Assembly (NCBI GenBank): GCA_001724265.1
Contig: MEDY01000046.1
Coordinates: 1 to 64,000 of the forward strand
Length of the DNA: 64,000 nt
Reading direction: 5' to 3'
Source: Rhizaria sp. SCN 62-66
Lineage: Eukaryota
Shown here: positions 16,801-50,699 of the stretch, piece by piece
Layout: each line of letters starts with the position of its first letter
Position numbering within the stretch: position 1 is the stretch's first letter
Program-made: the position numbers and the translations under genes
Notes under the pieces: generated by a model
What the model was told of the DNA's origin: nothing
The model's input: the letters and a program-made list of their open reading frames with translations, nothing else
Database searches by the model: none

Positions 16801-18825
16801 GCGCTGGGTCCGCGTGGCGGCAAGGCCGTCGACACGCGGCGCCGCAGCGGCGTCGAGATCCGCCTTGCGCGCAAGGCCAAGCGCACCACGCCCGACGGCG
16901 GCGCTGCCGCGCCCCCTAGCGGCGAGGGCGGGTTCAAGACCAAAAAGCGCCAGGACTCGCGCGTCGGTGCGCGCGTGTGCAAGAAGGACTACAAGGAGAA
17001 AGGCGAGCGCCCCGACGGGTCCGTGCTCTACGCTGCGCCGCGCCCCGCCAAGGGCGGCTGCTGCGGCGCCGTGAGCAAGTAGGCGGTTTGCGGAGCTGCG
17101 AATAAGACTGCGACCGCGACCGTGACCATGACTGTGACCGCGTGCGGCGTGATCGGGCTGTCTGCGGACCGCGCGAGCATGTACGACAACAAGACGTGCA
17201 AGAAAGACATCAAGGAAAAGGGTGAGAAGAGTGACAAGAAGGAGAAAAAGGACAAGAAGGAGAAGAAGGATAAGAAGGCTGCTGCTGCTGATGACAACGG
17301 AGATGAGGAACCTCTTTTCTCATTTGGCGTTACTTCGCCCTCCAAGGCCGCTGCTGCTCCTATCATCACAGCAACTTCTGCTCCTGCGCTTGACTTTTCG
17401 ACTGCTGCTGCACCTGCCGCGGCTGCGCCCGTTGCTCCGCCTGCCGTCGTTGCACCTGCCGCTTTGCCGGCTGCTGCGTCTGCTAAGGCCGGTGGCTTCT
17501 CTTTCGGTTTCAGCGACCCCGCTGACGCCGCACCTGCCTCTGTTACTGTCCCGGCGGCTGCTGCTGCTGCCGCTCCTGCTCCCAATTCTGGTGGCTTCTC
17601 GTTTGGCTTCAGCGACCCTGCAGCTGCCCCCGTTGCGCCCGCTGCTGCTGCTGCTGCTGCTGATGCTGCTGCTTCGAAGAGCGGCGGTTTTTCATTCGGG
17701 TTCTCCGACCCAACAGCTCCCTCTGCTGCCGTCACCTCTGCGGCTGCCGCAGCTGCCGCGGTTCCCGCCGCTGGCAGCGGCGCGGCGCCGACAACGGACG
17801 CCCAAGCCGCGCTGCGCGCGCGCTTCCGCGTGTACACGGACTCCGACTTGGTGTCCTTCACGCTCTCCGGCGGTCAGGGCACGCTGCACGCGGGCACGCG
17901 CGGCGTCGTCAAGGCAATGGCCGATGGCATGGTCAAGCGCCTCGAGACGGCGCACCAGGATGCCAACGCGCTGCTCGTGCCAGAGCACGTCGCCTTGCAG
18001 AAACAGCACGAGTCACTTGCCACGGTTGCACCGGAGGTTGTGGCGGCGGCGGCCAAGCCCAAGTTCAGCTTTGGCTTCACCTCTGCTGAGGAGACGAGCT
18101 ACGCGAATGCTGCTGCTCCTGCTGCTGCCCCCGCTGTCCTGGCCCCCGTTGCGGCCAAGGGCGGCTTCAGCTTCGGATTCGCAGCTCCCGACGATGCCAC
18201 GTCTTCCGCCTCTGCGTCCGCCGCTGACTCCGGTACCACTGCTCCTGCGACCGGCGCGAGCGCGCTGGCGGCACGGTTCGCCGCGCCCTCGCAGCGCACG
18301 CAGGTGATTCCCTCTGCCGCTGGTGAGGCGCGTGTGACCGCGCTGGGCAAGGACATGACCTCAGCCGTGGCGGCTGCGGCTGCGGCTAAGGCGGCCCAGG
18401 AGGCGGCGGTCAAGGAGGCGGCTGAGGCTGCAGCGGCCGCGGCGGCGCTGCGCGGGGCCAAGACCGAGGAGGAGCGCGCCGCGGCCGCCAAGGCTGCCGA
18501 GCGCGCGGCGCGGGAGGAGAAGCGGCAGCGCGCCAAGGCGGCGGACGTGAACATGATGCTTGCGCAGGCCACGATGGCCGCGGCGGCGCAGTGGGGCGGC
18601 GACGGCAAGAAGAAGGACAAGAAAGACAAAAAAGACAAGAAGGACAAGAAGGACGACGCCAGCATTGCAGGCAGTGGTGTGAGCGCGTTCATGCGCGACA
18701 GCACGTTCGAAGAGGACGGCGAGAAGGCGTGGAGCCGGCACAAACGCACTGCGGAGAAGGACTACAAGTCTAGCATGCATGCGGCCCGCAACAAGCGTCC
18801 GCGTGAAGCAGGGTCGCGCAAGTAA
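10891..18825 (+). CDS. Nucleolar protein 8 (NOL8)-like, about 2640 aa, read through one in-frame TAG (17080-17082)
   Basis: N-terminal RRM (RLYVSGL..FVSYGTVSDIHI..CRGFAHL..NSTWRGRQFIVELA) of NOL8 type. The extreme C-terminus (FMR..W..KR..DYKSSMHAARNKR) resembles the NOL8 C-terminal motif. ORF-track pieces 10891-17082 and 17122-18825 are in the same frame, separated only by TAG. Stop TAA. Confidence 0.65.
14275..14340 (+). repeat. Coding tandem pentapeptide repeat GGL(S/N)I x4
   Basis: ggtggtttgagtatc ggtggtctcaatatc ggcggcctgagtatc ggtggccttaacatc: synonymous divergence with conserved peptide. Confidence 0.8.
17491..18183 (+). repeat. Dispersed FSFGF (GGFSFGFSDP) peptide repeats with Ala/Pro spacers
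   Basis: GGFSFGFSDP at about 17491, 17590 and 17683; KFSFGF at 18061; GGFSFGF at 18160. Flanked by KKD/E runs (about 17220-17277 and 18607-18654). Confidence 0.8.
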
Positions 18826-19463
18826 GTCTGCGCACATTATTATGCACACTGCAACTGTTGTGTTACAGCCAGCCGACCAACTGCCTACTGCATATTGCAA
18901 GCTTCTGAAACTTCCAACTACGAAGAACACGCACTGTTAATATTATATATTCTTGTTAATTACTATTACTGAGTATCTCATTCAAGGTACGCAATACATT
19001 GACCATCATTTGTTATCTCGACATAATGTTACGCGGTGGTTATTGCAACGCTCTTCGAGGTATATCCTGATGTGATATGCTTAGATGAAAAAGTTTTATT
19101 ATGGGGTAGCTTTCTTCCGTTAGGCAAATATCAGTAGAGCATATGGGCTTTCGTTGTCTTTGTTTCGTCACGTACTCTTCCGATTCAGCTTTTTCACCAC
19201 ATATGCGTTTTCTGCTTTTTCGCAGCATCGTTCGTTCGTCCAGCTGCTGCATCACCTTGAAGGCAAGTTGGATCTTGACCTATCGTGAAACAAATTGAGC
19301 GTCAAAGTGAGTGTCAGATAGTGAAGCAAATATATTCGCAGTTTTATGCTATATTCAAATTCAGAGTGCGTTGGTGAATTGTTTTTGTAGCTGTATCTTA
19401 TTTTTCTCATCAGGCCTCTTAACTTGTCAAAAACATGCTTGCCCACTCCGAGAGAAGGAGCGG

Positions 19464-22400
19464 ATGTCCCACGTATTCCCTTCCTCTCCCCACCCAGCAG
19501 TGTTTCTCGACACTGTTCGTGCGGTTGACGCTACCCCCGTGTCTACAACGGCACTGAGCTCATTCATCACCGCCATTGAGGCACACACCTCCATTGCTCC
19601 ATCTTCATCATCGCAGTTCTCAGACTACTGGGTTGCTGCAGCCGCTGACGAGGCAGCCAAGCTATTTCGTAGTCTTCCACGCGACGAGATTGCCGAACGC
19701 ATTCGCCCCTTAATCTCTTCTGCTCCTGTCGCTGGCACTGCTTCAAAGGATGATGCATCGAGCGCTGCTGCTGCTCCGGGTGCAGGCGTTGCCATCCACT
19801 CAGTGTTCTCCGCGCTTGCTGAGGCCAACGCGGCTCGTGCTGCGGGCGGCTTTGCTGTTAGTGTTGCACCCCTTTCAGATGCTTCTCGGTTTCCCACTGT
19901 TGCTGCCACCGTGTTCTCCACTTCGAAGCCGAAGCAGGGCGGCGCGAAGCAAACTGCTGCAGCAGATGCTGGGAGCGCTCCGTCGTATGAAACGCGCTCG
20001 TACAAGACCGACATGATGATGGAGTCTCCTGGCACCGGATTTGACACCGCACCCCTTGCTGCTTATGTTGACGGGCTTTCCGCGACAAACAGTGACGCTA
20101 ACTCTGCTGCGAGCGTCACTGTGCTTTCGGACGGCACCAAGCGCGTCTGCGGCTCTGTCCTGTGCGCCCGCGCGCCCGCGACTGTTGGCCGCGCGCACAC
20201 GTTGCTGTTCCCACAACCACCAGCGCTTCCCGCGGCCGCGGTTGCTATCCCGAGCACCTCAGCAGCTGCCAATCCTGACACCAGCGTTGAGACCCGTGCG
20301 GCAACCGTGCGCGTGTCTCCGTTCGCTCCCTCATGGGCGCTGCACTCTGCGCGCAACGCAGGCCCGCGCGTGCCGCGCATCCCGGCCTACGCGCCGCTGG
20401 TTTTTGCACTTGACCCGGTCCCGCACGCTACTGTCGTCGCGCGCACGAACAAAGGCGGCAAGGCCCTTGCTGCGAATACGGCCGCAGGTGTGGCTGGCGC
20501 GTGGAGCCTGGCGGGCGTGCTTGTGCAGTCACCGTCCGCGGTTGAAGCCGCATACGAGCCCGTTGCCGCGGGCGCTGCAGAGACCGACCAGGGCCCTGTG
20601 CGCCCTGCGCTTGGGGCCGCCCTGACCGCAGTTGCGCCCGACACCGCCGTGGCGACTGCGACGGAGGTTCTGCTCACACCATACTCGAAGGCGTACTTCG
20701 CTCCTGTTGGCAGTAAGAATGCGACAGCTCCTGCCATCAATGCGACAGAACACCTGTCGCCTCCTGCCGCGGTGCCGCCATTTGCTTTGACCGGTGGTCG
20801 GGACTCATATTCCCCGCTGCCTGCAGTCACTCTTCCGGCCCCCGCGACTGCGAGCGCTGGCGATACTGCAGCTCTAGTGTCCCCGCTGTGTGCGGCGGCG
20901 GCATGGCGGCCTGCGACTGTGGCGCCGCGCGTGTCTGTTGCGCACACGACGTTTCTGCCTCACGCATTTGGTTTGCACGCGCTGCATCCCGTATATGTGT
21001 TCACTCCGCATGCCTCCAACAACAGTACTGAGAGTCCTGAGCAAAGCAGCAGTGCTGCTGCTGTAGGGCCGAGCGTGTTAGTTGACCCCGTCGGCTTCCT
21101 TGTGCTTGTGGAGACGCCCGCCGCCGCGTGGGCGCACGCGCTCGACACGGCCAAGGACACCGTGCGCTGCGCGTGGCCGCGCCCGGCGCCCACAGTCACC
21201 AGTAGCAATAGCAGTGCGGACGCGTGGGCGCAGCTGGAGGACCGTCAGGCGCGCCGTCTACTGATTGCTGTGGAGGCGCTGCAGCAGCAGGTGACGAACG
21301 TGTTGGCGCCGTCGCTGCTCAGCATGGCGCGACTGGGCGCCGCGATGGGCATGTCGGACGACAGCTAGCGGAGTCTGAACGACATGACTGGCTACATGGC
21401 AGAGATCATCGCTGCTGTGCGGCCCGGCGCAACCACGCCCGCGACTGGCGACAGTGCTGCGGCGGACGCGACCAGCGCTGCGGGGCCCGCGACAGGACTT
21501 CTGCGGCTGTCGGTGTTTCCGCGCACTGCGCTAACGCGTCTTGAGGGCCACCTCAGTCAGTTCACGTCTCATGGCGGCGAGGCTGCCGCGATGTTCCCTT
21601 CCGTGGCCCAGGCTGCCGCTGAGCTTGAGGCCGCGAAGCTTGCAACTGCTGACCTGCGTGCAGTCGCCGCAGCGGCTGCCGCATGTGTCACCGCGGGCTC
21701 TGCATACGTTGCGTCAACAGGCGCGCTCGCGGCGGGCGCTGCTGCTGAGCTCCTGCGCAATCACGGCATTGACGCGGCGTCCCGCATCGAATTGCCGCGC
21801 GATCTGATGACACCACAGGAGGCGGCGCGTCCTTGGGGCACGGTCATGTCGCCGAAGAATGTGTCCCCGCCCGCTGCTGCAGCGCTGGCGGCGCGCTGGG
21901 CGCTGCTGACGACGGAGCAGCGCACTGCGGCGCGCGCTGTGGCCGCTCTCAAGCAGTGGCTTGCGGAGACCGATGTCGACTTTGACGCCCCTCCGCCGCC
22001 CGCGGGCGCAGACACCAGCGACGCGACTGCGAGCTCAAACGCGAGCGCGGGGACGGGCGCTGTCGGCGTTGCTGGCCGTGTTGGCTCTGTGTCGTTCCTG
22101 GCAGAACTGCAGTCTGCGCGCAAGACGCGTCGCAGTGTCATGGACTACACTCTCGGCGACGGCGGACCACTGGCGGTGCTCTTTGGCGGCGGCGCGCACG
22201 GACAGGACGCAGCGCAACAGGCTATGAAGCTGCGGCAACAGTGGGCGCAGAAGGTTGAGGCCGAGCGCGGCGTTGTCATGGTCGGTCCACGTGTTGACCC
22301 GCTCTTCTTCACGCAAAAGGACGCGTACAAGGTAAGCATCGCCGTGTTTCACAACTGAAATGTCGTATACTTCTACAAATTGTGCAACGTATACTTAAAA

Positions 22401-23293
22401 AAAACACCCACTTGATTTATGTATTTCTTTGTTTATAGCACGTTTTGACTATGATCGAACGCATGGAGAGCGCTGTGATCCGCGTCGGCGCTGCGCAGAC
22501 GCCCGTGATTGGCACTGCGGCCGCTGGCGGCGTGCCCGTTTCCGCGCAGACGATCCTCAGCGCACTGTTCCACGGCATGGGCTACGTCGCGATGGACCGC
22601 GGCGGCCTCATATTTCTGCTTGACCAGAACATCGCCTTCCTGCCGCTGGACGCCCCGCCGCGCGCCCGCGCAGTCGTGCACCGTGCACGCGACGCGGGCC
22701 GCGTGCTCCGCAAGGCGCGCCGCGATCACCCGCAAAAGAAGCTCTCTCTGCGCGTCAACTGGGACCTGAACGGCGTTATTGCGGCGCTGCGGAAGCACCA
22801 TTCGAGCTCGTGGATCACGACGGACCTGGAGGTTGTATGGACGCAGATGCACCGCGCAGGCACGATGCTCACGTTCGAGCTGTACTGGGGCGAGGAGCTC
22901 ATCGCGGCAGATGTCGTGCATCTCATCATGCGCTGCGCGTACGTGGCGACGCGTTTCTCATCGCGTTCGAACGAGCACCGCGCTTTGCAGCCGGGTTTCT
23001 TGCTTGCCTTTGTTGCAGCGCGCGCACTGAGGGAGGCTGGAGTGCTGCTCTGGAGCCTCGGCGGCGTCGACCAGTCTTCCGCGATGGCGTACAAGCACGA
23101 GATTGCGGTGACTGAGCCCGGTGCCGTGTTTTCTGCACGGTTCAGGGCGGTGCGCAATCTGGGACCGATCATGCAGACTGTGCCCGGGGAGAACGGAGCG
23201 GCGCCGACACAGAAGCCTGTGTACTGCCCCTTCCCTCTTCACAGCGTTCTCGTCGAAGATATCACGGACGCGCACGTCCTATCTTTTGATTGA
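19464..23293 (+). CDS. Large protein with a C-terminal leucyl/phenylalanyl-tRNA-protein transferase (Aat)-like domain; in-frame TAG at 21366-21368; intron 22332-22438
   Basis: LSLRVNWDLNGVIAALRKHH..SWITTDL..MHRAG..TFELYWGEELIA resembles Aat (I..F..VI..C..TWIT..LH..G.AHSIEVW..ELVGG). ORFs 19311-21368 and 21384-22358 are co-frame across a TAG. The phase-0 GTAAGC..tatag intron joins them to 22439-23293. Stop TGA. Confidence 0.6.
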
Positions 23294-23714
23294 GTACATA
23301 GTAGCGTTTGCGGACCTTATGCTTATGACTGCTGACGACCACAGCATTCCCCGCCGTTCTACATTCAAGTCACTATTACCTGCGATCTGAAATCAAATTT
23401 TACTCTTGGTTCTATTTCAACTTTCACCCCGTTCACGGCCTGTGTTAAGCTGACAACGACCGTGAGCACTTGTCAGTTGCGTTTACGAGGCCACTGATCA
23501 GGCGCTTACGAATACACTATGATCTACATTAAGAAAATCGCATTATAGGCAAACACGCATTGGACAAGGTAGATATATGCTTTATATTAGTATTGATATT
23601 TCTATTATTGTTAGAGACACACATCTATGTCTCGATTTTCACCTAGTCAGCAGCCGAGCTAATCCCACTGCCTTGCACTCCTTGTCAACTTGAACAACAA
23701 CTCCACAGAGACTT

Positions 23715-25914: not shown

Positions 25915-26419
25915 GCTATCAGCGCTCTGAAGCAAGCAGGGCTGAGTGAGTGATGTGGAGTGCGCGACGTGCGCATGAAGCAGGGTGACTGCACCGCGTG
26001 CAAACGATAGGACAGTAGTCTCTGTCTAATGTCGATGTCTGTTTGCACAGTTGCACATGGTGGTTTGACGCATTAATGTAAAACTCTATAATGATATTTT
26101 GTATATCTGTGATTAAGTCTAGCTTAAGCTACTATGAGATAAGCTCTATTATGCATCTCTCACATGAAAGAACAATCAAGTACTTGAAGAAGTAACTTTG
26201 CATTTGATTCGTCGAATACAAAATGCTTTTGTGTACAAGCAACTGATATGCCACTATAATACGTACTTTATTGATATAGATCTATTAAACATCAACATTT
26301 ATCAAATTTGACTTAAACGGCATTACTTGGCCTGTTGGCATCATACTTACGAAGACTTTTCATTTAACTTGCACCAATCCACATCACAACGCGTGATTAC
26401 ACGATCTCCAATGCGAAGC

Positions 26420-27394
26420 TCACTCGTCGCCATTGTCTGCGTCAATCTAGTCTTTCCCGTTCCCATTCTTGTTCAGATCGTCTTCGCCGTCATCGTCATC
26501 GTCGTCGACAACGCGGCGACCCAGGAGCCCGGCCATGTTATAGTGCGCGCGCCGCTTAAGCTCAAACGCGCGCTTCTCCGCCTCGGCCTCTTCGCGCTGC
26601 GCAGGCGTGAGTCCGTAAAACTCGTCCATCTCCTCGCCCTCGATATCATCGCCTTCACCGTCATCGTCGTCGTCGTTGCCGTCGTCGTCGCTGTCGTCGC
26701 TAGCGGGCGGCGTGTCCTCCGTCGCCACGCGCGCGCCCGCGTTGATGTCGCCACCGTGCTCGCTGTCTGCGGCGGGTGTGTTGGCCGCGAGGCGCGCGCG
26801 CTTGAGAGCCGACTTGACAGGCTTGCCGGTGGAGGTGAAGAGCTTCGGCATGCCGGCAGCGGTCGCGCACGCGCTGCGGTACTCCAAGTCGCCGCTGCCA
26901 ACCGTCACCGCGGTCACCGCGTCAAGCGTGGGGAGTTCCCCGACAAAGCAGCCCTCAGTGGCCGCGGGGGCCAAGGTCGCGGCGACTACGGCGGGCGAGC
27001 CGGTGCTGGAGCAGGTGGGCGCAAGCGCGGGCGAGTTTGACGCCGAGAGCGCGGGGGAGCCAGGCGCGTGGTATGGCGTCTTGGGCTCGTCGATGGTCAT
27101 GCGGGGGACCTTCTCAGATTCGTTGAGTGCAAGGTTGTCTTCGTCCCAGACGATTCCGGACGCGGGCGCGACGGCACGCTCGCTGCGGAGACATCGAGGG
27201 AAGAACCAAAGCATAAGAGAAGCAGTATGAAAGGAAGCACACAAAGGGTTAGTGTGAGGGACAGATAGAACAAAAATAGGCCCAATAAACACATTGAATA
27301 TGCGCATGACGATCAGTTGCATGGAAACGTACGGCTTATCAGCTGTGCTGGATTTGAGGATTGGGCGAGGCACGTTGCTTGCTTGCTCTGACAT
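26420..27394 (-). CDS. PPP1R2: Protein phosphatase 1 inhibitor-2 (Glc8 family); intron 27332-27183; in-frame TAG at 26449-26447 with true stop TGA at 26422-26420
   Basis: PILK (SILK-type motif), IVWDEDNL, IDEPKTPY and FELKRRAHYN are diagnostic. The 150-nt AT-rich GTACGT..gcag intron removes a spurious hydrophobic stretch. The acidic tail continues past TAG as IDADNGDE-TGA. Confidence 0.88.
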
Positions 27395-27789
27395 CTCGAA
27401 AGAACACTGCAGGGAATGTGTGATATTGAAGGATATTATGAGAGTTGAAGTGTATAATAAACGGAATATATAGAAATCACGTTATAAAATACGGATACAT
27501 CTATCATGCAACGAATAACGGATTTTGAAGTGCATTTATTTGATTGCTTTGATCACACAAAACGATATCCCGATTTTTGAAGACGCGTGTCGCGAACGCA
27601 TTTGTGGCCAGGCATAGCTTTGCCGATTTTCTCGACGATATCGGGATCTCATGCCACAGATTCAGAATACTGTCAGAATTAATACATGATGTTTACTTTA
27701 TTAAACAAGGAATCACAGAGACAATAATCAGCGGTCACGATCATCGACTAAATGTAGGTTACACATGATACGCAACAGTATCGGAGAAC

Positions 27790-30700: not shown

Positions 30701-30821
30701 GCAGCGTCGAGAAGCCACCCAGGTCGGAGATAAAGGTCGATACGGACTCATTCAGAGCGGTCGCGGCCATAGGGCGAGCACTGGGCTCGAGGAAGCGCTG
30801 AAAGGCGTCAGTCAGGTCCAT
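27790..30821 (-). CDS. 26S proteasome assembly chaperone PSMD5/S5b (Hsm3)-like; exons 30821-30294, 30138-28459, 28277-28150, 28009-27790
   Basis: Three GTACGT..AG introns give one open frame. C-terminus (QFASLDLLLAAAGHTWG..FETFL..DWKQRIARAI..RLLRFARAG) parallels the PSMD5 C-terminus. Helical, Leu-rich. Stop TAA. Confidence 0.6.
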
Positions 30822-32468: not shown

Positions 32469-33098
32469 TTACCGCTCACGCGAGCGCGCCCGGATGCTGC
32501 TCAGCGTGCGGTCAACCGCAACACTGTGGACGGCCGTGGGCGGCGGCTCCTTGAGCTCCGCCGCGGTCTGGCGCGCGTGGATGATGTCGTTGACGCGCTG
32601 CTTGTCCTCGCGCGAGAGCTCGTGCGTAGTGCGCAGCGCCGCTGCGGCGCCCACCTGGCCCCCACTCACTGCGCGCACGAGGCGTTCGCGGCGGCCGCGG
32701 AACAACGGCTTCGGATGTGCAGCGCCAGGAGGGTGGTGACCGAGGTTTACACTGGGTTGACCAGTACGACTGCGTTGGTCTCGGTCGGAGCGGGTCACCG
32801 CACGGAACTCGGGCGTGAGCGAGGCAGCAAGCCAAGGCGGGTTGGCGGAGGAGCGGAGGTCCGCGGCGAAGAAGTTGCTGCCAACGACGCGGTCGATAAC
32901 GCTCTGCACGCGAGGCGAGTGCGCGTCGCTGTAAGGGTAGCCCATGCGCTCCGCGACGTCACGCGCATGCACGATCGACGACAGAAGCAGCTTGCCCTCA
33001 TTAGGCAAATTGTCCTTAAAGCGCAGGGCGCCTGCCTCTTTGATTTGCGACGAAGAGGCGCGGATCGCGTTGCGTGGGCGCTGGAGGGACGACTACAT
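32469..33098 (-). CDS. Hypothetical protein; possible start ATG-TAG at 33098-33093
   Basis: GC-rich frame extends upstream of the ORF-track start (TTG 33008) without stops to TAG 33095-33093, directly preceded by ATG. That TAG could alternatively be a splice acceptor. Confidence 0.45.
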
Positions 33099-36017: not shown

Positions 36018-39000
36018 TCACTGGCGCCCGCGCCCGCGCCCGCCGGGGCTCGCCGCGCCCGACTCGCTGGCAGAGGAGAAATCCCCAGTGTACCTCCGCT
36101 TCTTACCTCCCATGGCAACCGCGCCCGCGCCGGCGCCGTCCCGGCCCTTGTGGCCGCTGGCGCCGCGGCCGCGCATTGGCGACGCAGGCTGCGACCGCGA
36201 CGCTGACCCCGAGCCAGAGCCGGAGCCAGAGCCAGACTCCTCGCTGACCCTCTCCAGCGCCGCCGCCGCCGCTGAGAAACCACCGCGACCGTGAGCAATG
36301 GGGGGGGCGGGGCTGGGGCGCGGGCTCGCTATGCCCCTACTAGAGCTGCGGCTGGGTCGGCCCATAACAGCAATGGCGCCGGCGCCAGCGCCAGAACCAG
36401 CGACCGCGCCAGTTCTAGCGCCAGCGCCTGCGCCGCCGCTAGCGCTTGTGCCTGCGCCGGCGCTCGTGCGCGTGCTTGATGCGGCACTGGCGGCGCTGGC
36501 GCGGCGCTGCTTGCCGTCGCCGGGCGGCGTCCAGCGCGGCCCGCGCGCGATGAAGATGGGCGCGAACGCGCTGGTCTGCTGCACCGACACAAACCCCATG
36601 GCCCGCAGCGCGAGCAGTTGCACAAACGACACGGCGACGTCGGTCGCGGTCAGCGCGCCTGCGCCCGCGGGGCCCGCCGCGCGGACGAGCGCATCGTGCA
36701 GCGTTACCGCAGCGGTACCCATGGGTCCCGTGGGACCCGCGGGGGCAGAGGTACCGGCGGTGGCGTCGGCTGCGGAGAGGGCGCGGTGCAGGATGCGGTG
36801 GAAAGTGTGAGTCGCGCGCGTCATGATCGCGTCGTGCGCACTGGCGGTGGCTGCTGCGGCGACGGCAGCGGCGGCGCGGGCCTCGGCCGTGGGGCGGCCT
36901 TCGCTGTCGACATCGGGCCCGGCGAGCGAGATATCGGTCGCCAGCAGGATGCCCTCGGACGGGATCTGAGAGAAGTTCGCCAGTGACACGTCGCCAAACG
37001 ATGGGCCCAGGTCGACGCCGCCCATCGCGGGCGCGTTGGAGATTGAGAACACACCGGCGCCCGGACCGAGGCCGACGCCAGTCTGCACGTCCCCGAAATG
37101 CTCACGGTCACCTTCACCCTCACCGGCTCCGAAGACGTCAGATGACGCGGCGAATGAAAAGTCGCCCTGGCCGAGTCCGCTCTGGTTTGACGCCATCGAG
37201 AGGCGGTCTGAGGCCGCGCGGCGCTGCTCCGCTGCGTCAAATCCCACCGAGGCCGCGAACGACACATCACCACCGGCGGCTGCAGCCATGTCTTCGTCTA
37301 ACGGCAGGAAGCCTCCGTCGTCGTACTGTTGATGCTGGGCGTAGTCGTCGTGCTGTTGCTGCTTGTATTGCGCGGTGGACGTGTCCTCTTCTTCCTCGTC
37401 GCCATACACTGCACTAACGTCCAGCATTGACCGATACGCCCCCGCAACACCGGCGCCAGCGCGAGCAGTTGAAACAGCGGGCGTTGGGCGGATATAGCCC
37501 TGGTGGTCGAGCCCAGCCGCTGCGAGCGCCAGAACGGCGGCCGCTGGCCCCACAAGCGCTGTCGGGTACATCCCGCTCCATGGCGCGGACTGCAGAGTCA
37601 GCGCCGCTGGCGGCAGCGGCAGCGCGGCGACGGCGGCGTCGGCGGCGCCCAGCGGCGGCGCGCGCTGGCGGAGCGCGCCGTAGGGGCGAATCAACGCGGA
37701 TGGATCCGTGATGGCAGCATTCATCGCAGCGTCGGTCAGCTGCGTGCGCGCGTCTTGCTTCATTAGCGACACGGCGGCAGAGGCGGCGGAGGCGGAGGCC
37801 AGGCGGGAGCGTTTGGGCACGGGACCTGTCACGGTAGCGGCGGCCTGCGCGGCGGCTAGCGCGGCGGCCGCCGCGGACGCGGGGGACAAGGGCGCGCCGC
37901 CGGCACCGGCAGCGGTGGCGGCAGCGGCGGATGAAGGGGACTACGGGGCAGCGACCAGCAAACCCTATGTGAACAAGTCGGAATCGGAGATATAATGATT
38001 TAGTGAGATTTCATTGCAATAAATAACATAATTTCGTGGTATCGACATAAAAGCAGTCAGGGCATGAACAAATCGATATGTTAGTTTGCGTGTCAGTAAG
38101 GTAGTCCAAAATAGTGACATACGCGTCGCGCAGCGGCTGCAAGCTGTTCATCATCGAGCCCCGCCTCTGCCGCCGCAGCGGCGCGCTCGGCGGTGGCGGC
38201 GTCATAGTCTACGTCGTCAAGCCCGATGTCGAGCCCGAAGGTGTTGAGCGCGTGCAGCCTCTTACGGCTCCGCGCTGCCGCAGCGGCGGCGGCCACTTCG
38301 CTGCTGGAGAGCGCGGCGGCGTAGGCGTGTTCACTGGCCTCAGCGACCGCGGCGTCGGCCATCTCCATCGCCTCGTGGAACGCGTCTTCATGTGTACCCT
38401 CACGTGTACTGTCACGGGTACCCGCAGCAGCGGCGCTGGAGCCGGGGAGGGGGCCGAGGAGGCCCTCAGTGGCGTCGCCCAGTAACGCGTACGGGTCATA
38501 CCCACCCATCTGTGCAGCCCACAGTGGAAACAAATAGCAACAAACAATATGATTTTAGTAAGTTGAAACTAAGAAACGTCCATCAAACATAGATAAAGTT
38601 TAGATACAGTTGGTTTCAAGTTGTTGTGAAAGATTCATTCTTCAAGTTAGCTTAAGCGAAACGTACGTCGAACTCGTCCATGCCGCCGTCACCGATGCCG
38701 CCGAAGCCCGCTGCTCCGAACGCCGCGTCCAAGTCTAGCCCCATGCCAGCAGCGTCTTCGGGGCCCACCCCGCGCTGCGCCGACAGCCGGCGCGCGGCAG
38801 CAGCCGCAGCGGCGCCCTGGCCGGCTCGCGCGCCCGGGACGGCGGCGGCGAGCGCGTCGACGTCGACGTCCGCCAGCAGCAGGTCGCCGGCGGCTGCGAG
38901 GTCGTACAGCGCGTGCTCATCAACACCCACAGCCACACCGGCAGCACCAGCTGCGGTAGCCGCGGCATCAAGTGAGGCCGCGTCGGCGACGTGCGCGGAG

Positions 39001-39684: not shown

Positions 39685-39978
39685 AATTTAAAACAACCAG
39701 TTGTTGTATACACGCAAAATCTGGTCTTGATTTGAGCAGTATGAAAGCAAAGAATCGTTGTTTAAAGAAAGTTTATCTATTGGCCACACTGGGCGCGCAC
39801 AGTCCCTCTTTTTAACCACGAATTGGTTTTCAAGTTGCAACCAGACACTAGAACTCGGTATTTTTCTTAGACGTTGCCTGTACGCAGTATATTCAAATGT
39901 TGCCGCAATATATGTCAGAGTCTGAACATGTTTAATCGAGGCAAGTCATCTCCGTGATCGCCGTGACTATGTTTCCTC

Positions 39979-41025: not shown

Positions 41026-41421
41026 GGGGACGGGGCAGCGAGCGGGCTCACACGTGACAGACGCGGCCGGCGGGGAGACCGTTCGGGGGGAACGCTAAGC
41101 ACTATGAAAACAATGTAGAAGGTTTGTGCAAAGAGTCTTGACTACAGACAGTTGAATAGATATTAGCGGAGATGTGAGCAGGACTCGGTTGTCAAAGACT
41201 ATCCAGGACAGCAACCATAATAAGACGCCGCCTCCAGAGCGACGTTTCCAACTGCTAGGTGCACTCCAGACCAAGCTGTCATGCCGCTTCAAAACATTAT
41301 TTCAGAGATGCAATAAACAGAATATATCATTATTGCATCAGTGTGCATTATGACAATTTGATGGAACCACTGACGATCAAATCCTTGCACACTCTACTTT
41401 TTCTCGTTCAGATTCGGTGAC

Positions 41422-44013
41422 ATGCTGTGTGCGACCCATAAGGCCGCAGTTGCAGTACACCGCGTAACGCCTGCTGCTCGGCGCATAACACCTAGCTCGC
41501 TAACATCCCTCCATCGCGCGTCGGCGCCAGCGTCTTTGTCCAATAATTCCCGTCGTTAGACTGGACGCTCGTTTGATCTTGCATCGGTTGATGTGAGCGC
41601 ACTCTTCGCGTCCCCACCCAACGCAGGCTCCGTGCTCGCCACAGCCGTGGCGCTGCGCGACGGAGCCCGTTCAGTTGGATTTCTTTACATCAGCAACTCC
41701 CCGCTTACTGCGCACATCCCGCGTATTCATGCAGCGTCAGAGTGGTTCTTCGCGCTTCCCGACGCCGCGAAGGCTGCCGTACGCACTGACAACGCGCAAC
41801 GCGGCTACCACCGCTTCCAGGGCGCGCCGCACTCAATCTCCGCCGCTCACCCTGACTCTGGCGCAGACAGCGCTGCGGTCCCCACTCCACTTGCGGGCGC
41901 GACGCAGGATGGGATTGAGGCGTTCACGGTCGCGAACGACACAGCGCGCGTCGATGAGCTCCGCGAAGGGTACGACCAGCTCGCACTGCTGTCGCCGCCG
42001 CGCCTCGCGGCGGCGGCCGCGGCAGACGCGCGCGACCCTCAGCCACCGGCTGTGCTAGCGCGCGCAATTGCCGGCCCCGCGCAGAGTGTCGCGCGCGCAG
42101 CGAGCGCTGGCTTCGGCATTGCAGCGCCACTGTCCTCAACGGGAATGGCAACGCCGCTGCAGGGAATCGCAGCACCTCTCTCCGCTCCGATCACTGCGCC
42201 GCTATCGACGCCGTCTGCCTTTTTGCATGCGGGATTCTCTGCGCCGATCTCTGCACCGGCAGCGTTTCCTGTATTGAGCGACGCCGCGCGTCATCAACGC
42301 ACACGTGCTGCGGCGAGTGCGGGCAGCGAATCTTCTCTCAGTGAGTCGACTGTCACCTCTGCCGCCGCTGCGCCTGCCAGGACAGTGGCGACCTCAGGCC
42401 GCCTTGCTGACTTGTGCGACGAGGATGACGACGAGGCTGATGCGGGGGGTGATAGCGGCGTTGCCGTGCCGCTGGCAACGCTGTGGCGGTCCCAGCACGC
42501 AGCGGCGGGTCTGCCCTTCGCTCCGTCCGTCTCCGGCGGCGCTGCACAGTCGCTCGCGCACTCACCTGCTTAGACGCGGAGCCCGATGCCTGTGGCCTGC
42601 AGCGGGCTGCCGTTCGGTGTTCTCGCGCCGCTCTCTGCATCGACGGTCACTCTGAGTCAAGCTGCTTCACCGCCCGATCACAGTCAGCGCGTCCCAACTG
42701 TAAATGCGACAGGAGTCTCGCGTGGAGGCAACAGGTGGCCACGCGCCAGTCCCGCACCGCCCGCCCTGGCTATTCCTGCGCTCAGCACCACAGAGAAACA
42801 ACCCGAAGACGTCTGCAACAGCGACAAAAGCGACAGTACAAATACAGGAAGCACCACGGCTGCGTCTGTGACACAGACTGGGGATGCTGCTGCTGTTTTC
42901 CGCAGAGTGCTAACGGAGTATTACGACGCGTGCGCTGATACAGGCGACGTGCTTTCAGCGGCGCTTGCGTTCTCTCTTTCTCTGCCGCCTCGCACTGCGA
43001 CTCCGAACACCGCCACCGCTGCCATGGTCACGGATGCCGCCGCGGCAGTGGCGCCATTGATGCGCTTTCTGGGACGTCGTGGCTGCTCCAACGCTAAGGA
43101 TCTTGCGGCAGGAAACATGGGCGATCGCCCGTGGGACCGCGCTTGGGAGCGCGTGCCGCTTGCGCACAGCCGCCGCGCACACACTCTGGAGCTCAAACGT
43201 TACCCCGATCCTGCGCGCACGCGTATGGGGGCTGCAGCCCACGCCGCGTTGCCCACAGCCGCGGGACGCAACGCAGGTGCTGCCAGCGCAGAATATGCAC
43301 TTGCTCCGCTTGACTCGGACAGCGACGACTGTTCGAATCCTCGCTCTCACAACGTTATCAGTGGCAGTCAGGCTGTTGGCGCGGGCCCCGTGGCGCTGCG
43401 CATGCCGGTTCACTCAGACTTATCGACGCTTACGTTTTTGCTCCAGTCACACGACCAGGGCGGACTCCTTGTGTGCGACGCTGGAATTGGTACGAAATCA
43501 TAGAATAATGTGCATGCAGTCTGAATCAATTGTACACCCCCGTAATCCACACTACCTTTTAAATCAATGTGACACTTATCTCCTGTCCCACGACTACTTG
43601 TCTGTTCAACGCTTGTAGACCAGTGGCTTCGCGTGCCGCAACGCGCAGGCCACGTGCTAGTGAACACTGGGGATTTTTTCCGTTCCTGGTCGCGAGGGCT
43701 GCTGCCATCAACGTTGCATTGTGTCGCCTCAGTCCGTTCAAACTCCGACATCCCTAGCAGTTAGATTGACAACACCACAAGTGCGGTTTCTGGTGCAAAT
43801 AGTGTCTTCCGTGAGCGACTTAGCACGGTCTTCTTCTATCAGCCCGACATGGACGCAATTGTCGCTCCGCTGCCCGAGGCTAGCTTCCACCCCGCCAACC
43901 TCTCAATGACAAATGGCCACTGCGGCGGCGATATCGTCAGTGGGGTGGCGGCAAAAGCCCGGAAGCTCGAGGAAGTGTTTTTAGCTGGAGATCGTTATCC
44001 GTTTGTTGAATAA
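41422..44013 (+). CDS. 2-oxoglutarate/Fe(II)-dependent dioxygenase (IPNS-like) with Ala-rich insertions; three in-frame TAGs (41557, 42571, 43762); intron 43490-43618
   Basis: DIOX_N-like region (SVDVS..VGFLYISN..FFALPDAAK..RGY). HxD in PVHSDLSTLTFLLQ, GGLLV, then after splicing QWLRVP..VLVNTGD..STLHCV..RLSTVFFYQPD (distal His and RxS). Stop TAA 44011-44013. Confidence 0.85.
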
Positions 44014-44911
44014 TGCGCAGCGACTTTCTTCTGCGTCAGGTAAAATGCGAAACACTTCCGTGATCCTGAATGACCTAAACTAGTTCTGAGTGCCCCCTGT
44101 TTTTAACTGTATACTGCATATTTTGTGCGAAACTTGGTACATTTATTAATAAAAGTGAATTAACATAACAAATGGGCACATTTATGATATATTCCAGAAA
44201 TATATTGAATGTATTGCGTTGTTTTGCACTTGCGTTCGAAATGGGTCTTCGGGGTAGTAAGTGTTAACATCGGGAGATTACGTATTAAGTCGATAGGAAT
44301 ATTGCATTGGATGCATGAACGAACAGCTGATTTGGGGGGGAACATAAAAAAATATAATTTAATGAATTTAGGCAACGCATTCACTTGCTAATGCAAGATG
44401 AACGAAAGAGGTGCATGTTAGCACCGGGTGTCAGTTGTGTTGTTTGGGTACGGATGTCGGTTTCTCTTCTTAGAAACTGACATTACGCTTAAATTGAGCC
44501 TCAAGCTCAATGTCAAAAGTGTTATATCATTATGATACAGTTTTTATACACTCTGCCAGTATGCAAAGTGGAGACTGCATGTTTACTGTGCTGGGAGTCG
44601 CCGATGCGATGCTCCACAGTCAAACGCGCCAATACAATCGTTTCCGACATCGCGAGTTAAGAGTCAAAACTATTGATCAGTCACATTTGTGATCTCAATC
44701 AAGTTGTGTGAATACACGAAAACACATTTGTTTCTCGTAGCTGCAGCGTGTGTAGAACAGCAACTGCAGGCTTAGTTGTAGGTGATGAGTATTATAGCCA
44801 ACACAAAAACGAAACTATCGTTTGGCGTTGGGCGAGCGACAAGCCACAAAGTCTGTGCAAATTTCAGCCTGTGCATTTGTGAAGTAAGCTCAAATAGTGT
44901 CACCATGCCGT

Positions 44912-47900
44912 TTACTTGTAGCGCCTGACAATAGGGCGGAGCTTGCTCGAAAGCTTTGCATCCTCGGCCTTGAGTAAGTAACGCTTGACGAACTCTTCCT
45001 CTTTCATGAACTCTGTCTCCTTGGCGGGGATCTTGATCGCATCTTCGGCCACAAAGACGGCAACCTTGCGGCGCACATCCTCCAGAGCGGCATCAAGCAA
45101 GGCGAATACGCGTGTCCTGCGACGCTTGAACCGAAGCTCTGCCATGAAGGCATCGGAGATGTAGTAGCACTTCTCGCGGTTCTCGTTGCACGCAAGCACG
45201 TGAGCGTGCGAATCACCAGGAGTGTGGAATTTCATACACACACCGCAGAAGTCGTGCTTGCAGCTACCGCAGCGCACGGCGGCGCAGTTGGTCCAGTCAT
45301 ACACGATGACCTGACACTCAGGGTTCGGGCACTTGTCCTGCTGCGCGTCGCGAATCGCCGCCAAGAGCACAGCATTGCTCTCCTCCACGTCAGCGCTGTC
45401 GGCAGCGCTACCACCAACATTTTGAGTAATGTTACAAGTCTTGCAGGAGAACACCTTGGCGCCACCAGCTATATTGAATCAAGAATCAAGATTCGGAGGA
45501 ACAAGAAGTGATTGGTGAGAGGATAGGATTGTCAAATATCTCTGATGAGCTAGACATGTAAATAGGGTTCTTTCGGTATGGTCTCATTGATAAAAATAAA
45601 ATTACATCCAATCATGTAAACAACGTACCCGCAGGAGCCAGAGCATTTGCGCGCTGGATTTCAGGGCAAGTGTTTGTGGGGCACTTGACAAATGCGTCCT
45701 TATTCTTGAGCAGGTATTTGTCGCGCGCCCACCGGAGCATCGCCTCAAACTCACCGGGGCCAAATGCGGCAATGGGGATGTCGCGCAGCGGCAGCTTTGC
45801 CTTGCATCCTGCGGCGCAGCAGTTGCACCCATTCTGCTTTAGCTGGTTGACAACATGTGGGAGGCAGTCGTGACACGCGACGTGATTGCACACACTTGAG
45901 GCCATGCCCAAATTCTGACGCAACACTTCGTCGCCGCAGTAAGTCAAACACTCATTTCCAGTCAGCGCATCAGTCTTTTGGGTCGTGTCGAGCATGTCAC
46001 GCGACTCGAGGGCCTCCTTCAGATTGGAGACGTTTGTGTTGGAGCCTGACACAAGATAAATGTCGTTTCGTGAGGCATTTTGCGTTTTTCCAGAGTAGAT
46101 ACTCTCGACCTTGCTCTTCTTTAGCAGCTGCTCAACATCACTCGCTTTGGCAGTGCTTTTAATCTCAATTCGGTTGTCAACCCACGCAAAGTCGGCGAAC
46201 TTTGTGACTAGTTCTTGAAGCTTAGCCCGCATTGCGTTGCAGCATGCTGCACTGCCATACATGTCGATCGAGTTTGCTTTGTGATTAATCTCAGCCCACA
46301 CAGGTAACTTTGACTTGAACTTTACTTGCGCTCCGTGTTTACCCTTATCGGCATCTTTGTCTTTGTTGATCTTCTCCGTAGTTTTCTTGCTGCGAAATTC
46401 CGTAAACAGCCCGCCAAGCTGACGTGTACCGTTTGCACCGGTGAGGCGTGAAAAGACGTCGATTAGCGCGCCCGTATCTCGCTTGACTGACTCGACACGG
46501 TGAGACACAAAGACAAACTCGTTCTTCATGTACTTCTCAGCAGCTTCAATGGCGGAGTCATCACCTGCCACAATGATGGTGTACTTAGAGGAGTTCTTCT
46601 TGTTGCCGTTCCTGCTGTTAACATCAACAGTGGGTAGAATCTTGCATTCCGCGCCCTTGGTGACAGCAGCCAGCTCTTCCATGACCTCATCACCCATTGA
46701 GGTACCCACCTCAGCAGGTAGCACAATCATCAGAAGCGGGCACATCCGCTGCTGAAGACTGCGGCCAAAGTGATTGGTATCGAACATACTCCCCGCGGGA
46801 AACTGTCCATCAATGTAGGCGTACTGACGAGGGTTGTTGCCCTTACGCTCCACAGCCACTGCAACCTTTTCAACAGAGTCATGTGCAAACGCGGGCGGCA
46901 GCTCGAGACCACCGGCCGCGGTGGCAATCCAGCTCGCCTCGCAGATCTGATCCCTGCGAATAATTTCGATGCCACATGCAGCCTCTGCAATTGCCACAGT
47001 ACCAGCCGCAGACTGAGAGTAAGCAACTGTGCAGCCTAAGCGGCGCAGCACTGAGTGGTTGTGCAGCACATAATACAAAAGCGCTGCATCTCCCCTCGAG
47101 GCGCAGGTTAGTGTCGCTGTAGTGCGATCGGGGTTGTTTTCGTCGCGCTCAAACGTAATGGTGGGAACCTTACTGTCGTAGTTGTCGGGAATAAAGAAAT
47201 CGCGGAACACCTCTTCGTCATCGTACTCGTCAGGGGTGTTTGCAGGGATGTTGGACACTGCCACCAAGGCAGTTTCATTGTCGCACAGAAGATCGAGCAC
47301 TTCGAGACCGGCACCACAAAGCAGAGCGACGTTGCCCCCGACGTCCATCTGACGCACTTCGACAAGCTTGCGTCCGTGCACCGCTTGGCGAAGCTTGTAA
47401 AACGCGAGAAATGCCAGATCGGCGTTGTTTTTGGGTGCACGAACCATGACACCAGATGCGTCGATCACAACCGTGCAGTCGTGCTTCTTCTCGAAACGTT
47501 CGCGTGCCGCCGGAGTCGGGAACAATGCGTCTGACTCGCCAAGGTTAAGCGTGTAGAACTTGCTTTCTGTTGCTGTCTGATGAGCCAAGGCATGACACTT
47601 CTTGTAGAAGTTTGGACTATATTTTACAATCCAGTCCAGCTCAATGGGCACCGGCGGGGTTGTGACAATGCACTGACCGTGAGAAGCGTGCGCGGACACA
47701 TACACAGCCCACTGGCTCAACCCGCGAATCTCAGCGGGAGACTGACGGCGCCAGTTAATCAACGTCTTGCCACTGCTTGCGCTCGTGTAGTACGCATGGT
47801 TGTTGTTGGTTAACCCCGCGTCGTCGTTGAGCTTGCGGATGGCGTGAGTAAAGTACCCTGCTGCAACGCACTTGAATACATCTTCATCGCGAATGTTATT

Positions 47901-50699
47901 AATGTTGACCATCGCATTCATGAACAATAGATTAAAGCTTGAGATGTGTTGGGCCATATGCTACTCCTTCATAAAAAAGCTCGTGAAGTTCTTAATCATG
48001 TGCTCAATCCAGTTGTGAGCAAGCAAAAAGTACTACTCCGGCAGTTTAGACTTCTTGACCTCGAGACTACGCTGCTGTGGCGATGTTGCCGTACGCCAGG
48101 CCACAATTGCCTTCAAGCACGCTTCGACGCCGATTGACGACTTCTTTTTGAGACTCTCAACAAGATCATCTCCGAGCACAACATCGTCGTTGACTGTCGC
48201 ATCTCCATCTGACACATGGGCGATGAAACCTGGGTTCGAGAGGTGAATGTAGTGAAGTGCGGCAGCAACAGCAGCACCAAACCCGAGATTTTTAGACTTA
48301 CTGCCCTCAACGATCACTTGAGTAAGCTCAATGGGACAGCCTGTAGCAACGCTCATCCTGCCGATCTCAGTAGTCATGAGAGTATCTGGGTGAATTGCAC
48401 CGAGTTCACACAGGTCCTCCATCGCGTGCTTCACTGCATTCTACGACGGTGGATCAAACCAACGGAACTCACTTGGACTATGGCCCAGGGATGCGAGACA
48501 CAGCACCGTCGTTTGCAGCGGTTGGCACAGCACTGCAGCAACGTTTGCTGGGGCAAAACGCTTGAGCTGGTTGTGACTATAGAGACGCACACAGTGGCCT
48601 GGGCGAGTACGGCCAGCGCGACCCTTGCGCTGCTCGGCCGAGGCCTGCGAGATAGACTTCAGCGACACGTGCGCAAGGTGCGTCTTGGCGTTAAACTCGC
48701 TGGCGGAACGCAGGCCGGGGTCAATGACCACGGTCACGCCGTCGATCGTCAGCGATGTCTCGGCAAACTCGGTCGCCAGGTACACGACGAACTCGTTGTT
48801 CTTGTTCTTGTACGCTGCTACTTTGCCCCTGCCCCTGCCCTTGTTCCGCGCGCCGCCCGCGGGCTTACCTGAGCTGTTCTCATCCTCATCAATAGACCCG
48901 AGGTTGCTTGCCGGCTCAAGGTGACCGTCAGCATCTGTCATAGTGACTATGGTGAAGGTCGCATCATTGGGCATCGAACGCGCAATTGTTGATCGCTCGA
49001 GTAGCCGCTTGGCTTGCTCGATGTGACCGTCAGTCGGGAGGAACACCAGAATGTTGCCCTTGAGCGGCCCGCACAAGCTGCCACGCAAGCAACTTGTAAT
49101 GTTTGACACAACCGTGCTTGCCAGGGTGGGCCCAGTAAAGGGCACGGCAGGCGGCACGTGCATGATGTCAACCCAGTTGCGTTGGTCTTTGATGTTAACC
49201 TGGCCAACGCAAAGCGCGTTACCATCGCGTGCAAAGTAGTCGCTGAACGCCTTCGAGTCAATCGTAGCCGACATGACGACAACCTTGATGCCCATACCGA
49301 CAGCTTTTGAGGCGAGCGACAGAAGGATGTCGCTCTCGACAGTGCGCGCATGCGCTTCGTCAAGCACAATACACCCGACTGTCGCATCAGGAACAAGCGC
49401 ACCTTCAGAGCCTAAAGCGCTGTCGGTTTTTCGCGATACTGCAACACGATACGCGTTAATGACGTCCATCTCGGAGGCGTACGCAATGCGGGTGCTGTCG
49501 CTTGCACCTTGGCAGTCGGCGCCGAGGAACGCCACGCCCGATGTACCATCCTCGGCCTTGGCCCCCTGAAGGGTGATGCCGTTGCAGCCATGGATTGCGT
49601 TTTCGTCGCCATTACTTAGGCTCTTCAACAGCCCATGCACACGAAAGCAAGATCCATTGAAGATATTGCGGACGTACTTGGATAGTTCTTCAGCCGCCAT
49701 GCGGTGCGGCTGCGTACACAGCACTGTCTTGCCACGCATGAATTCGAGATCGCTGACAAAAATGGGCACCTGCGTGCTCTTGCCACAACCGGGTGCACCC
49801 GTGACAATAATGATGTCGTTGTCAGTCACCGTGTCCTCAATCTCCTTGCGGTGCCAGCGCACAGAGTGCTCGCCCAGCAGCAGGCTTGCCTCACGGCGAA
49901 GGTAGCGGACCATAGCCTCATCGCTCAGCTGCGCATTGCGTGCTTTAGACACACGCGCGTTAAGGTCGTTGGTGTACTAGTCAAAGCACACCCGCAATGC
50001 GTCACGGTCTGCGCCACGCAACGTTGACTGCGGGCTAAAGTAGTTCGAATGGACTGTCTCACAGATCGTAGCCAACTGGACCTCTGCATGCTTGACCAGC
50101 TGTGCAAGAGGAAGAGTGGCAAGCTTCTTATAATCGTATTGCTTGGCAGGGCTGCGAAGGATGTTCGCATTGTTGTTGCGATCGTTACTGCGGTTGTTTG
50201 CACGTTGGTGGTCACTGCGTCCATGGCCGCCTTCACTGACACGTTCGCGGCGGTTTCCGCGGTTGTGGGCGCTGTTTTCAGGATCACCACCGTCGTTCAC
50301 AGCACCGTTCGAGCCGTCGTCGAAGTCGTCGTCGTTCCCCTCGGGTGTATTGCGGGGTTGACCAGGAGCGCCCCGAGCATGACGAGTCTTCTGGTGCTGG
50401 CGCCGTTCACGCTCGTTCTTGGCGTTTACCGCATCTTGATAATCCGGGTCATCTTCGTGGATGTAGGAACACATCCATTTCTTGCCACTGTCGCAGCCGC
50501 GACGAGTATTGTTGCGAGAGCAGATCAAATGCATAGCGGTGTGGCGGTAGATGCACGTGGAAGCATGCGGATTCCGTGCCAAACAAAGGGCCTTACGGAT
50601 ATATGGACATAGCGGGGTTTCATGCTCGGTGCACCTGGAGTTGAAGCAGAGGCGGCCTTTGCACTTCCGGGCTTCGCCAGGAGGGCGTCCAGAACTCAT
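44912..50699 (-). CDS. CCCH-zinc-finger + DEAH-box RNA helicase + RBR (RING1-IBR-RING2) E3 ligase fusion; four in-frame TAGs (49979, 48443, 48035, 47963); intron 45628-45469
   Basis: GAPGCGKSTQVP, CTQPHRMAA, DEAH, MSAT, LVFLP, LATEFAETSLTIDGV, SQASAEQRKGRAGR, FDPPS..DLCELGAI (HA2). RING1: CLTYC..CNHVACHDC..CCAAGC. IBR-like: CPTNTC..CKTC. RING2: CPNPEC..NCAAVRCGSCKHDFCGVC. Five ORF-track pieces join into one frame. Stop TAA. Confidence 0.88.

Follow-up and report, generated by a model that had tools for sequence, protein, structure and literature searches.

The window analysed here, a stretch of 64,000 nucleotides of DNA (positions 1 to 64,000 of contig MEDY01000046.1, GenBank assembly GCA_001724265.1, deposited as Rhizaria sp. 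SCN 62-66), contains genes that are interrupted in frame by TAG codons. We consider it probable, at roughly 0.85, that this nuclear genome, like that of at least one related organism, uses UAG as a rare sense codon, most likely for glutamate, and that UAA and UGA terminate translation. The reading of UAG as a sense codon is supported by four kinds of sequence comparison: gapless homology across the TAGs, a related locus that has TAGs of its own, an asymmetry between in-frame and terminal stop codons, and the finding of these TAGs again in other, independent data sets. A preliminary description of the window had proposed a sense UAG with UAA and UGA as stops, and all four agree with that proposal.

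In-frame TAG codons in conserved coding sequence

The preliminary description listed 12 TAGs, and all 12 are present, each at its position and on its strand. We grade four of these as firm (21366, 48035, 48443 and 49979), as the alignment with a relative is gapless and both flanks are conserved, five as probable (17080, 41557, 42571, 43762 and 47963), one as ambiguous and two as probably noncoding. The earlier claim that the TAGs fall in otherwise intact genes is partly confirmed, for the nine firm and probable sites; the TAG at 26449 is ambiguous, and those at 33095 and 37943, which had been marked as tentative, are probably noncoding.

The largest group of TAGs is found in a gene encoding a DEAH-type helicase fused to an IBR/RBR region (44912-50699, minus strand). 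The gene has a main exon (45615-50699), an intron (~45479-45628, bounds uncertain) and a terminal exon that runs to a TAA at 44912-44914, and the 1,695 codons that follow its ATG include four in-frame TAGs, no TAA and no TGA. Two relatives were used for comparison. The metagenomic protein P0005 (42% identity) crosses the sites X770 and X906 without gaps, and the metagenome locus L002 (52% identity over helicase residues 216-1073) crosses X258, X770 and X906 without gaps. X770 (48441-48443, minus strand) is located in the conserved segment 'FRWFDPPS_NAVKHA'; the window reads 'FDPPS[TAG]NAVKHA' and P0005 reads 'FEEPTENSVTHA', and the gapless alignment places glutamate opposite the TAG in P0005 and proline in L002. 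X906 (48033-48035, minus strand) is located in the context 'LPE_YF..A..W', where 'LPE[TAG]YF' in the window is matched by 'LPREYF' in P0005, with glutamate opposite the TAG in P0005 and histidine in L002. X258 (49977-49979, minus strand) aligns to L002 without gaps and has an aspartate opposite, in a segment that is poorly aligned. X930 (47961-47963, minus strand) is in a variable, AT-richer segment between conserved blocks and has no plausible intron around it; a GTAAGT near 47963 falls within conserved coding sequence. The residue opposite X930 is cysteine, proline or serine depending on the aligner, as the segment is gapped and poorly aligned.

Some other features of this gene and its surroundings were observed. 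Two more TAGs are present in the leader upstream of the ATG, and the leader (50700-50750, minus strand; 'FHLF[TAG]QKQA[TAG]LHPRMS') resembles positions 6838-6900 of locus L004 ('FLIWIQQQAIPKMS') at the translated level. L004 belongs to the organism of P0005 (relative B), and the likeness might reflect conservation of a 5' leader or an upstream open reading frame, or it might be chance. All five proteins of the P0005 cluster (P0005 and P0251-P0254), which come from several assemblies, end at '...VTVRARSA', and the helicase of the window extends ~600 residues further; this common end would fit an in-frame TAG or an intron at that point in relative B. The helicase/RBR region (44000-51000) has ~50-54% guanine plus cytosine (G+C) versus ~63-72% in the neighbouring genes and carries four of the nine in-frame TAGs. 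In another assembly (L001) this region and the giant gene beside it are contiguous.

The remaining firm site, the TAG at 21366-21368 (plus strand), lies in a gene whose function is unknown (19464-22358, plus strand; 964 codons). The window reads 'MGMSDDS[TAG]RSL' where the start of the protein P0250 reads 'MGMNDDSERAV', with glutamate opposite the TAG. A profile-free exhaustive search with this gene returned three proteins: the relative P0250 and the two halves of the gene itself (P0248 and P0249), which the public protein collection files as two proteins split at the TAG.

The TAG at 17080-17082 (plus strand) is part of a 2,644-codon, alanine-rich gene with RRM and FG-repeat features (10891-18825). 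Its flanks have G+C fractions of 0.72 and 0.63, there is no donor within 500 nucleotides, and the motif 'CKKDxKEKGE' is repeated on either side. The coding log-odds of the frame are the highest on both sides of the TAG (23.8 and 23.4); the codon-usage classifier behind these values separates coding from noncoding frames poorly (G+C at third positions of 0.71) and was used solely as a hint for this site. A 2OG-oxygenase-like gene (41422-44013, plus strand) holds three probable sites. The TAG at 41557-41559 follows a presequence-like N-terminus and precedes the DIOX_N domain; since no ATG occurs on the way from the TAG to DIOX_N, translation must pass the TAG. The alternative at this site is a 105-nucleotide in-frame intron (GTACAC..TAG) with a G+C fraction of 0.59, unlike the confirmed introns described below. 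The TAG at 42571-42573 is in a low-complexity insert, where a second strain has CAG, and the TAG at 43762-43764 is in exon 2, where it separates 'STLHCV' from 'RLSTVFF' within the 2OG-Fe(II) fold. The sites 17080, 42571, 43762 and 47963 are in continuous open frames, with upstream G+C fractions of 0.45-0.72 over 120 nucleotides and mostly no GTACGT-type donor within 500 nucleotides; the donor near 43762 is accounted for by a known intron that ends at 43618.

The ambiguous TAG (26447-26449, minus strand) precedes the terminal TGA of an IPP-2-like gene by eight codons and could be a sense codon or a real stop. The TAG at 33093-33095 (minus strand) lies in AT-rich sequence that is probably an intron or untranslated region, and the TAG at 37941-37943 (minus strand) lies where a Rad21/Rec8-like gene has a likely 3' splice site, or seven codons past it; neither is counted as evidence. 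These two sites have upstream G+C fractions of 0.40-0.42 and donor-like sites 103-182 nucleotides upstream.

In-frame and terminal stop codons

Ten coding segments with a total of 13,609 codons contain nine in-frame TAGs, one TGA and no TAA. The absence of internal TAA codons, reported earlier, was confirmed over these segments, where in-frame TAA is nowhere near as frequent as in-frame TAG (0 versus 9). Gene ends show the opposite distribution. All 15 gene-end codons in the preliminary description are as it gave them, nine TAA and six TGA with no TAG, and the G+C content drops after each. Two gene ends beyond that list are a TGA at 22356 and a TAA at 32471, and two gene ends in relative B (L003/L004) are also TAA. 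The difference between in-frame stops (eight TAG, one other) and terminal stops (no TAG, 15 other) gives a Fisher p of 1.2e-5, or 7.1e-5 when the TAG at 26449 is taken as terminal. TAG makes up ~0.07% of the codons; if it is read as glutamate, it accounts for nine of the 622 glutamate codons of the counted segments (~1.4%).

A related organism with TAG codons of its own

JGI metagenome contigs were scanned with an alignment of the window's helicase and P0005, and the loci L001, L002 and L003/L004 were returned. L001 is from the same organism as the window (99% identity) and has the TAG at 49979, and L003/L004 are from the organism of P0005. L002 is open for 890 codons save two TAGs, which are at other positions than those of the window; in the remaining two frames there are 70 and 30 stops. 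Of its two TAGs, one is in helicase motif VI, 'SKASA[TAG]QRIGRAGR', where the residue in the window is glutamate. Among 120 DEAH hits, 49 match the pattern of this motif, and the column holds glutamate in 21, asparagine in 17, glutamine in six, lysine in two, arginine in two and methionine in one. As the frame of L002 is interrupted by nothing but two TAGs, at sites of its own, the comparison supports the view that the UAG trait belongs to a clade, with at least one related organism sharing it. The recovery of three related organisms in one contig scan (the organism itself and those with 52% and 42% helicase identity) suggests a small clade whose members live together.

Recurrence of the TAGs in other data sets

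The TAGs are not assembly errors, as they are retained in contigs from other sources: X3, X7, X4 (49979) and L001 (49979). The X3 contigs, which come from another study, cover 42571, 43762 and 49979 and show no differences over the listed pieces of the 20 kb compared. X7 covers 47963, 48035 (record 29) and 48443 (record 30), all unchanged. X4 represents a slightly different strain; it keeps the TAG at 49979, and all eight differences of that contig are elsewhere. Among the differences listed for X4, record 13 has a T-to-C change at 42571 that converts TAG to CAG. The comparisons with X4 and X6 rest on the differences listed; one further difference in record 15 of X4 and two in record 13 might touch a TAG.

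X6 is a polyA-RNA library. Record 23 retains the TAG at 43762, but this contig enters the intron at 43490-43618, as does record 22, and record 20 (over 41557, with three further differences that might touch the TAG) spans two divergent genes. Since the X6 contigs run through the intron, they may represent unspliced RNA or DNA carry-over and have no bearing on the mature mRNA. There are no credible splice joints among those listed for X6, which are artefacts of GC-rich repeats, joined over 18-22 letters on each side. The region 44740-48074 is not covered by X6.

The amino acid probably encoded by UAG

Three-way and pairwise alignments were used to assign an amino acid to UAG, with likelihoods calculated from the substitution frequencies within those same alignments. 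The 13 comparisons at seven TAG sites have glutamate opposite the TAG in five cases, proline in three, and aspartate, histidine, serine, alanine and lysine in one each. The log10 likelihoods are -13.2 for glutamate, -15.0 for aspartate, -15.6 for proline, -17.5 for glutamine, -26.9 for tyrosine and -30.6 for leucine, so that by this empirical measure glutamate is favoured ~50-fold over aspartate, ~10^4 over glutamine and ~10^17 over leucine. The proportion of glutamate (5/13) is near the rate of glutamate-to-glutamate conservation in the same alignments (0.32) and far over the background of 6-8% (P = 0.0007-0.002). From these alignments we conclude that UAG probably encodes glutamate, a call in which we place less confidence than in UAG being a sense codon.

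Introns that carry in-frame stops

Two introns in the window show what a spliced stop codon looks like in this genome. An in-frame intron of 138 nucleotides in the CPSF73 gene (6843-6980, plus strand; GTACGT..TATAG) is AT-rich and holds a TGA at 6956; it is confirmed by alignment with carp CPSF3, in which a 46-residue gap exactly matches the intron. The 2OG-oxygenase-like gene has a 129-nucleotide in-frame intron (43490-43618, plus strand; GTACGA..TTGTAG) that holds a TAG at 43501 and a TGA at 43522. A donor scan found eight intron-like, AT-rich stretches that open with a near-invariant GTACGT, at 6843 on the plus strand and at 27332, 28458, 30293, 34731, 34976, 38666 and 45628 on the minus strand. 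Because genuine in-frame introns carry stops, a frame that is open and free of frameshifts across a stop is not sufficient proof of coding, and the case for any TAG has to rest on homology or on a context unlike that of an intron. The preliminary description relied on intact frames: no frameshifts were seen here either, but the introns at 6843-6980 and 43490-43618, with the stops that they carry, had been overlooked. A GTACGT or AT-rich intron context is present at none of the ten main TAGs.

The length of each confirmed intron (138 and 129 nucleotides) is divisible by three and the frame continues across them, which could be chance with two cases. The position of the CPSF73 intron is shared with P0126, a relative with 72% identity whose open reading frame also runs off at 'VHGNPIGM'. 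In relative B the carrier gene likewise has a GTACGT donor.

An in-frame TGA in the giant gene

A single in-frame TGA (60255-60257, minus strand), overlooked in the preliminary description, is present in a giant gene that encodes a RING, a MYCBP2-type RCR and a Kelch region (51234-63998, >4,254 codons) and runs off the window. The TGA is in the RCR domain and separates open frames of 1,247 and 3,006 codons. The CxxC motif around it reads 'VHFCQ[TGA]CHDNY' in the window versus 'THFCNACHDD' in human MYCBP2 (5o6c/6t7f), without gaps, and three metagenomic homologs have alanine, glutamate and alanine at this position. A protein search around the TGA gave only homologs with ~33% identity and thus no strain-level evidence that bears on its authenticity.

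Selenocysteine recoding of this TGA finds no support, as it requires a selenocysteine insertion sequence (SECIS) and none was found with Rfam in the window at gathering score or near the 3' end of the giant gene, where no SECIS family matched at E values up to 10 (50600-51400); Rfam models may miss SECIS elements of protists. A candidate intron that opens with GTAAGA at 60352 and ends just before the TGA was rejected, as the stretch encodes conserved RCR residues. This codon could represent a nonsense allele or an error, a site of readthrough, or an indication that UGA is decoded on occasion. The earlier statement that UAA and UGA remain stops stands in what concerns the gene ends and the lack of in-frame TAA, and is qualified for UGA by this one codon.

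Alternative explanations

Several points weigh against the reading of UAG as a rare glutamate codon with UAA and UGA as stops. The amino acid call is made on seven sites, two of which (X258 and X930) are poorly aligned, with other aligners giving glutamine or cysteine, and the sole strain variant at a TAG is CAG, a glutamine codon, not GAG. The TAG at 26449 could be a genuine terminator. Only 15 gene ends were available, and the probability of finding no TAG among them would be 0.005-0.035 were TAG 20-30% of stops. The TGA in a conserved domain would mean that more than UAG differs, or that the contig contains nonsense alleles or errors. The main competitor is a UAG that is sense but encodes another amino acid: glutamine, which is the commonest assignment elsewhere, or aspartate, lysine, serine, leucine or tyrosine. 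Glutamine is suggested by the CAG of the second strain, by the glutamine opposite X258 in one pairwise alignment, by the small number of informative sites, and by what usually becomes of UAG in other lineages (PMC11687900). Glutamine is found in none of the 13 comparisons of the three-way alignment, where glutamate is found in five, and the likelihoods given above disfavour it and leucine strongly; we regard an amino acid other than glutamate as unlikely, though it is the alternative to be taken most seriously. An ambiguous, context-dependent code, in which UAG and perhaps UGA would be sense or stop by position as in Condylostoma, karyorelicts and Blastocrithidia, is a good deal less probable. 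It would account for the TGA in the conserved CxxC of an otherwise open frame, which would be translated too, and for the TAG ahead of the TGA at 26449, which might terminate. It does not sit well with one in-frame TGA in 13,609 codons versus six clear TGA ends (one of which is a tandem TGATGA), with the lack of TAG at any unambiguous gene end, or with the absence of in-frame TGA from the 890 codons of L002.

Two further alternatives are both very improbable. Removal of the TAGs before translation, through short in-frame introns that end in TAG or through U-to-C editing, draws on the presence in this genome of in-frame introns with internal stops and a TAG at the end, on the 105-nucleotide candidate that the TAG at 41557 could close, and on the one T-to-C change seen at a TAG. 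The gapless alignments at 21366, 48035, 48443 and 49979 indicate that nothing is spliced out there, and the TAG contexts are GC-rich and without the GTACGT donor of the intron-like sites. The T-to-C change comes from X4, a data set that covers introns and spacers evenly and has many other differences of all types, which marks the change as a strain variant, and the TAG at 49979 is intact in X4. The last alternative, that the genes with TAGs are pseudogenes, nonsense alleles or products of misassembly, is the least probable of all, if by little. Metagenome contigs can contain errors, and the TGA at 60257 may be one such case, but nine of the ten in-frame stops are TAG, without frameshifts; contigs from other studies carry the TAGs as well, and so does a second strain; L002 (52% identical) has two TAGs elsewhere in a frame that is otherwise intact; and TAG closes none of the 15 genes.

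Comparison with known codes

Nuclear code changes are rare and splits between UAG and UAA are rarer, and the release factor's recognition of these two codons is separable (PMC5304391, PMC11687900). Reassignment of UAG alone has been described to leucine in Rhizaria sp. exLh and to glutamine in Iotanema spirale (Panek et al. 2017, PMC5304391). These two resemble the window in that UAG is sense and UAA and UGA are terminators, in being non-ciliate protists and in having been found from sequence data alone; they differ in the amino acid, which in the window is most likely glutamate, and in that the genome of the window is GC-rich. McGowan et al. (2024, PMC11687900) report UAG as leucine in some phyllopharyngean ciliates, a group in which it stands for leucine or glutamine, as glutamine in Protocruzia, Hartmannula and Trochilia, and as serine in Scotinosphaera. 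The phyllopharyngeans, Protocruzia and Scotinosphaera share with the window the decoupling of UAG from UAA and a preference for UAA as terminator (nine TAA versus six TGA in the window), and the inferred amino acid of the window differs from theirs. A 64-kb contig with many genes, high G+C and GTACGT introns of ~130 nucleotides is presumably unlike ciliate macronuclear DNA.

The code of the peritrichs is translation table 30 and that of Blastocrithidia is table 31. In peritrichs UAR encodes glutamate (PMC11687900), and in Blastocrithidia nonstop UAR encodes glutamate and UGA tryptophan, with UAA acting as a stop as well (PMC12153298). Both resemble the window in UAG encoding glutamate, and a rare in-frame UGA would echo Blastocrithidia. 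Unlike in these codes, the window has no in-frame TAA versus nine TAGs in 13,609 codons, and UGA ends six genes. The introns and G+C content of the window are also, we presume, unlike those of trypanosomatids. The ciliate Oligohymenophorea sp. PL0344 reads UAG as glutamate and UAA as lysine and has UGA as its stop (McGowan et al. 2023, PMC10553269). PL0344 shares with the window a UAG for glutamate that is independent of UAA, and it uses a dedicated suppressor tRNA. It differs in that UAA is not reassigned in the window (0 in frame in 13,609 codons, nine gene ends), and the organism behind the window does not look ciliate-like.

In the full texts of the literature searched, there is no report of UAG as glutamate with UAA and UGA as stops, and none that describes this kind of code for a eukaryote from wastewater, which agrees with the earlier suggestion that the code may be unreported. 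On balance, and with only slightly better than even confidence, we favour a clade of at least two to three GC-rich wastewater eukaryotes with an undescribed code in which UAG is glutamate and UAA and UGA are stops, a non-ciliate UAG-only reassignment of independent origin and the first to glutamate, with UGA perhaps decoded occasionally. As to mechanism, a tRNA carrying the anticodon CUA, which probably arose from tRNA-Glu(CUC) through a single change at position 36, would decode UAG only, without wobble onto UAA, and eRF1 would have lost efficient recognition of UAG and kept that of UAA and UGA. We infer the tRNA, the change in eRF1 and the translation of UAG in vivo. ARAGORN found no tRNA in the 64-kb window nor in the metagenome loci L001-L004.

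If true, a non-ciliate code with UAG as glutamate and UAA and UGA as stops would extend the list of code tables and count as a further independent origin, and the natural pair of eRF1 and tRNA(CUA) could be of interest for code engineering. Gene callers that apply the standard code cut genes at TAG, as seen in P0248 and P0249, so that metagenomic eukaryote bins of this clade are mis-annotated.

Source of the DNA and gene content

The average G+C content of the window is ~61% and falls to ~50% at 32-36 kb and 44-48 kb. Near-identical DNA is found in bioreactor, wastewater and activated-sludge data sets of several studies, and the nearest proteins in a collection of 15 billion proteins are metagenomic sequences throughout. 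The window is best explained as nuclear DNA from an uncultured eukaryote of wastewater and bioreactor metagenomes, GC-rich (~63%) and poor in introns. No Rfam RNA was found at gathering score anywhere in the window. Typical eukaryotic nuclear genes are present, including those for a PH-kinase-WW protein, CPSF73, and IPP-2-like, Rad21/Rec8-like and 2OG-oxygenase-like proteins, in addition to the DEAH-type helicase/RBR fusion and the giant RING, RCR and Kelch protein. Exon 1 of CPSF73 is ~50% identical to metazoan, Corallochytrium and Chromosphaera proteins. The similarity is too weak, and too much shaped by the make-up of the database, for the organism to be placed from it. The CPSF73 gene closes with a tandem stop, TGATGA, at 9512-9517 (plus strand).

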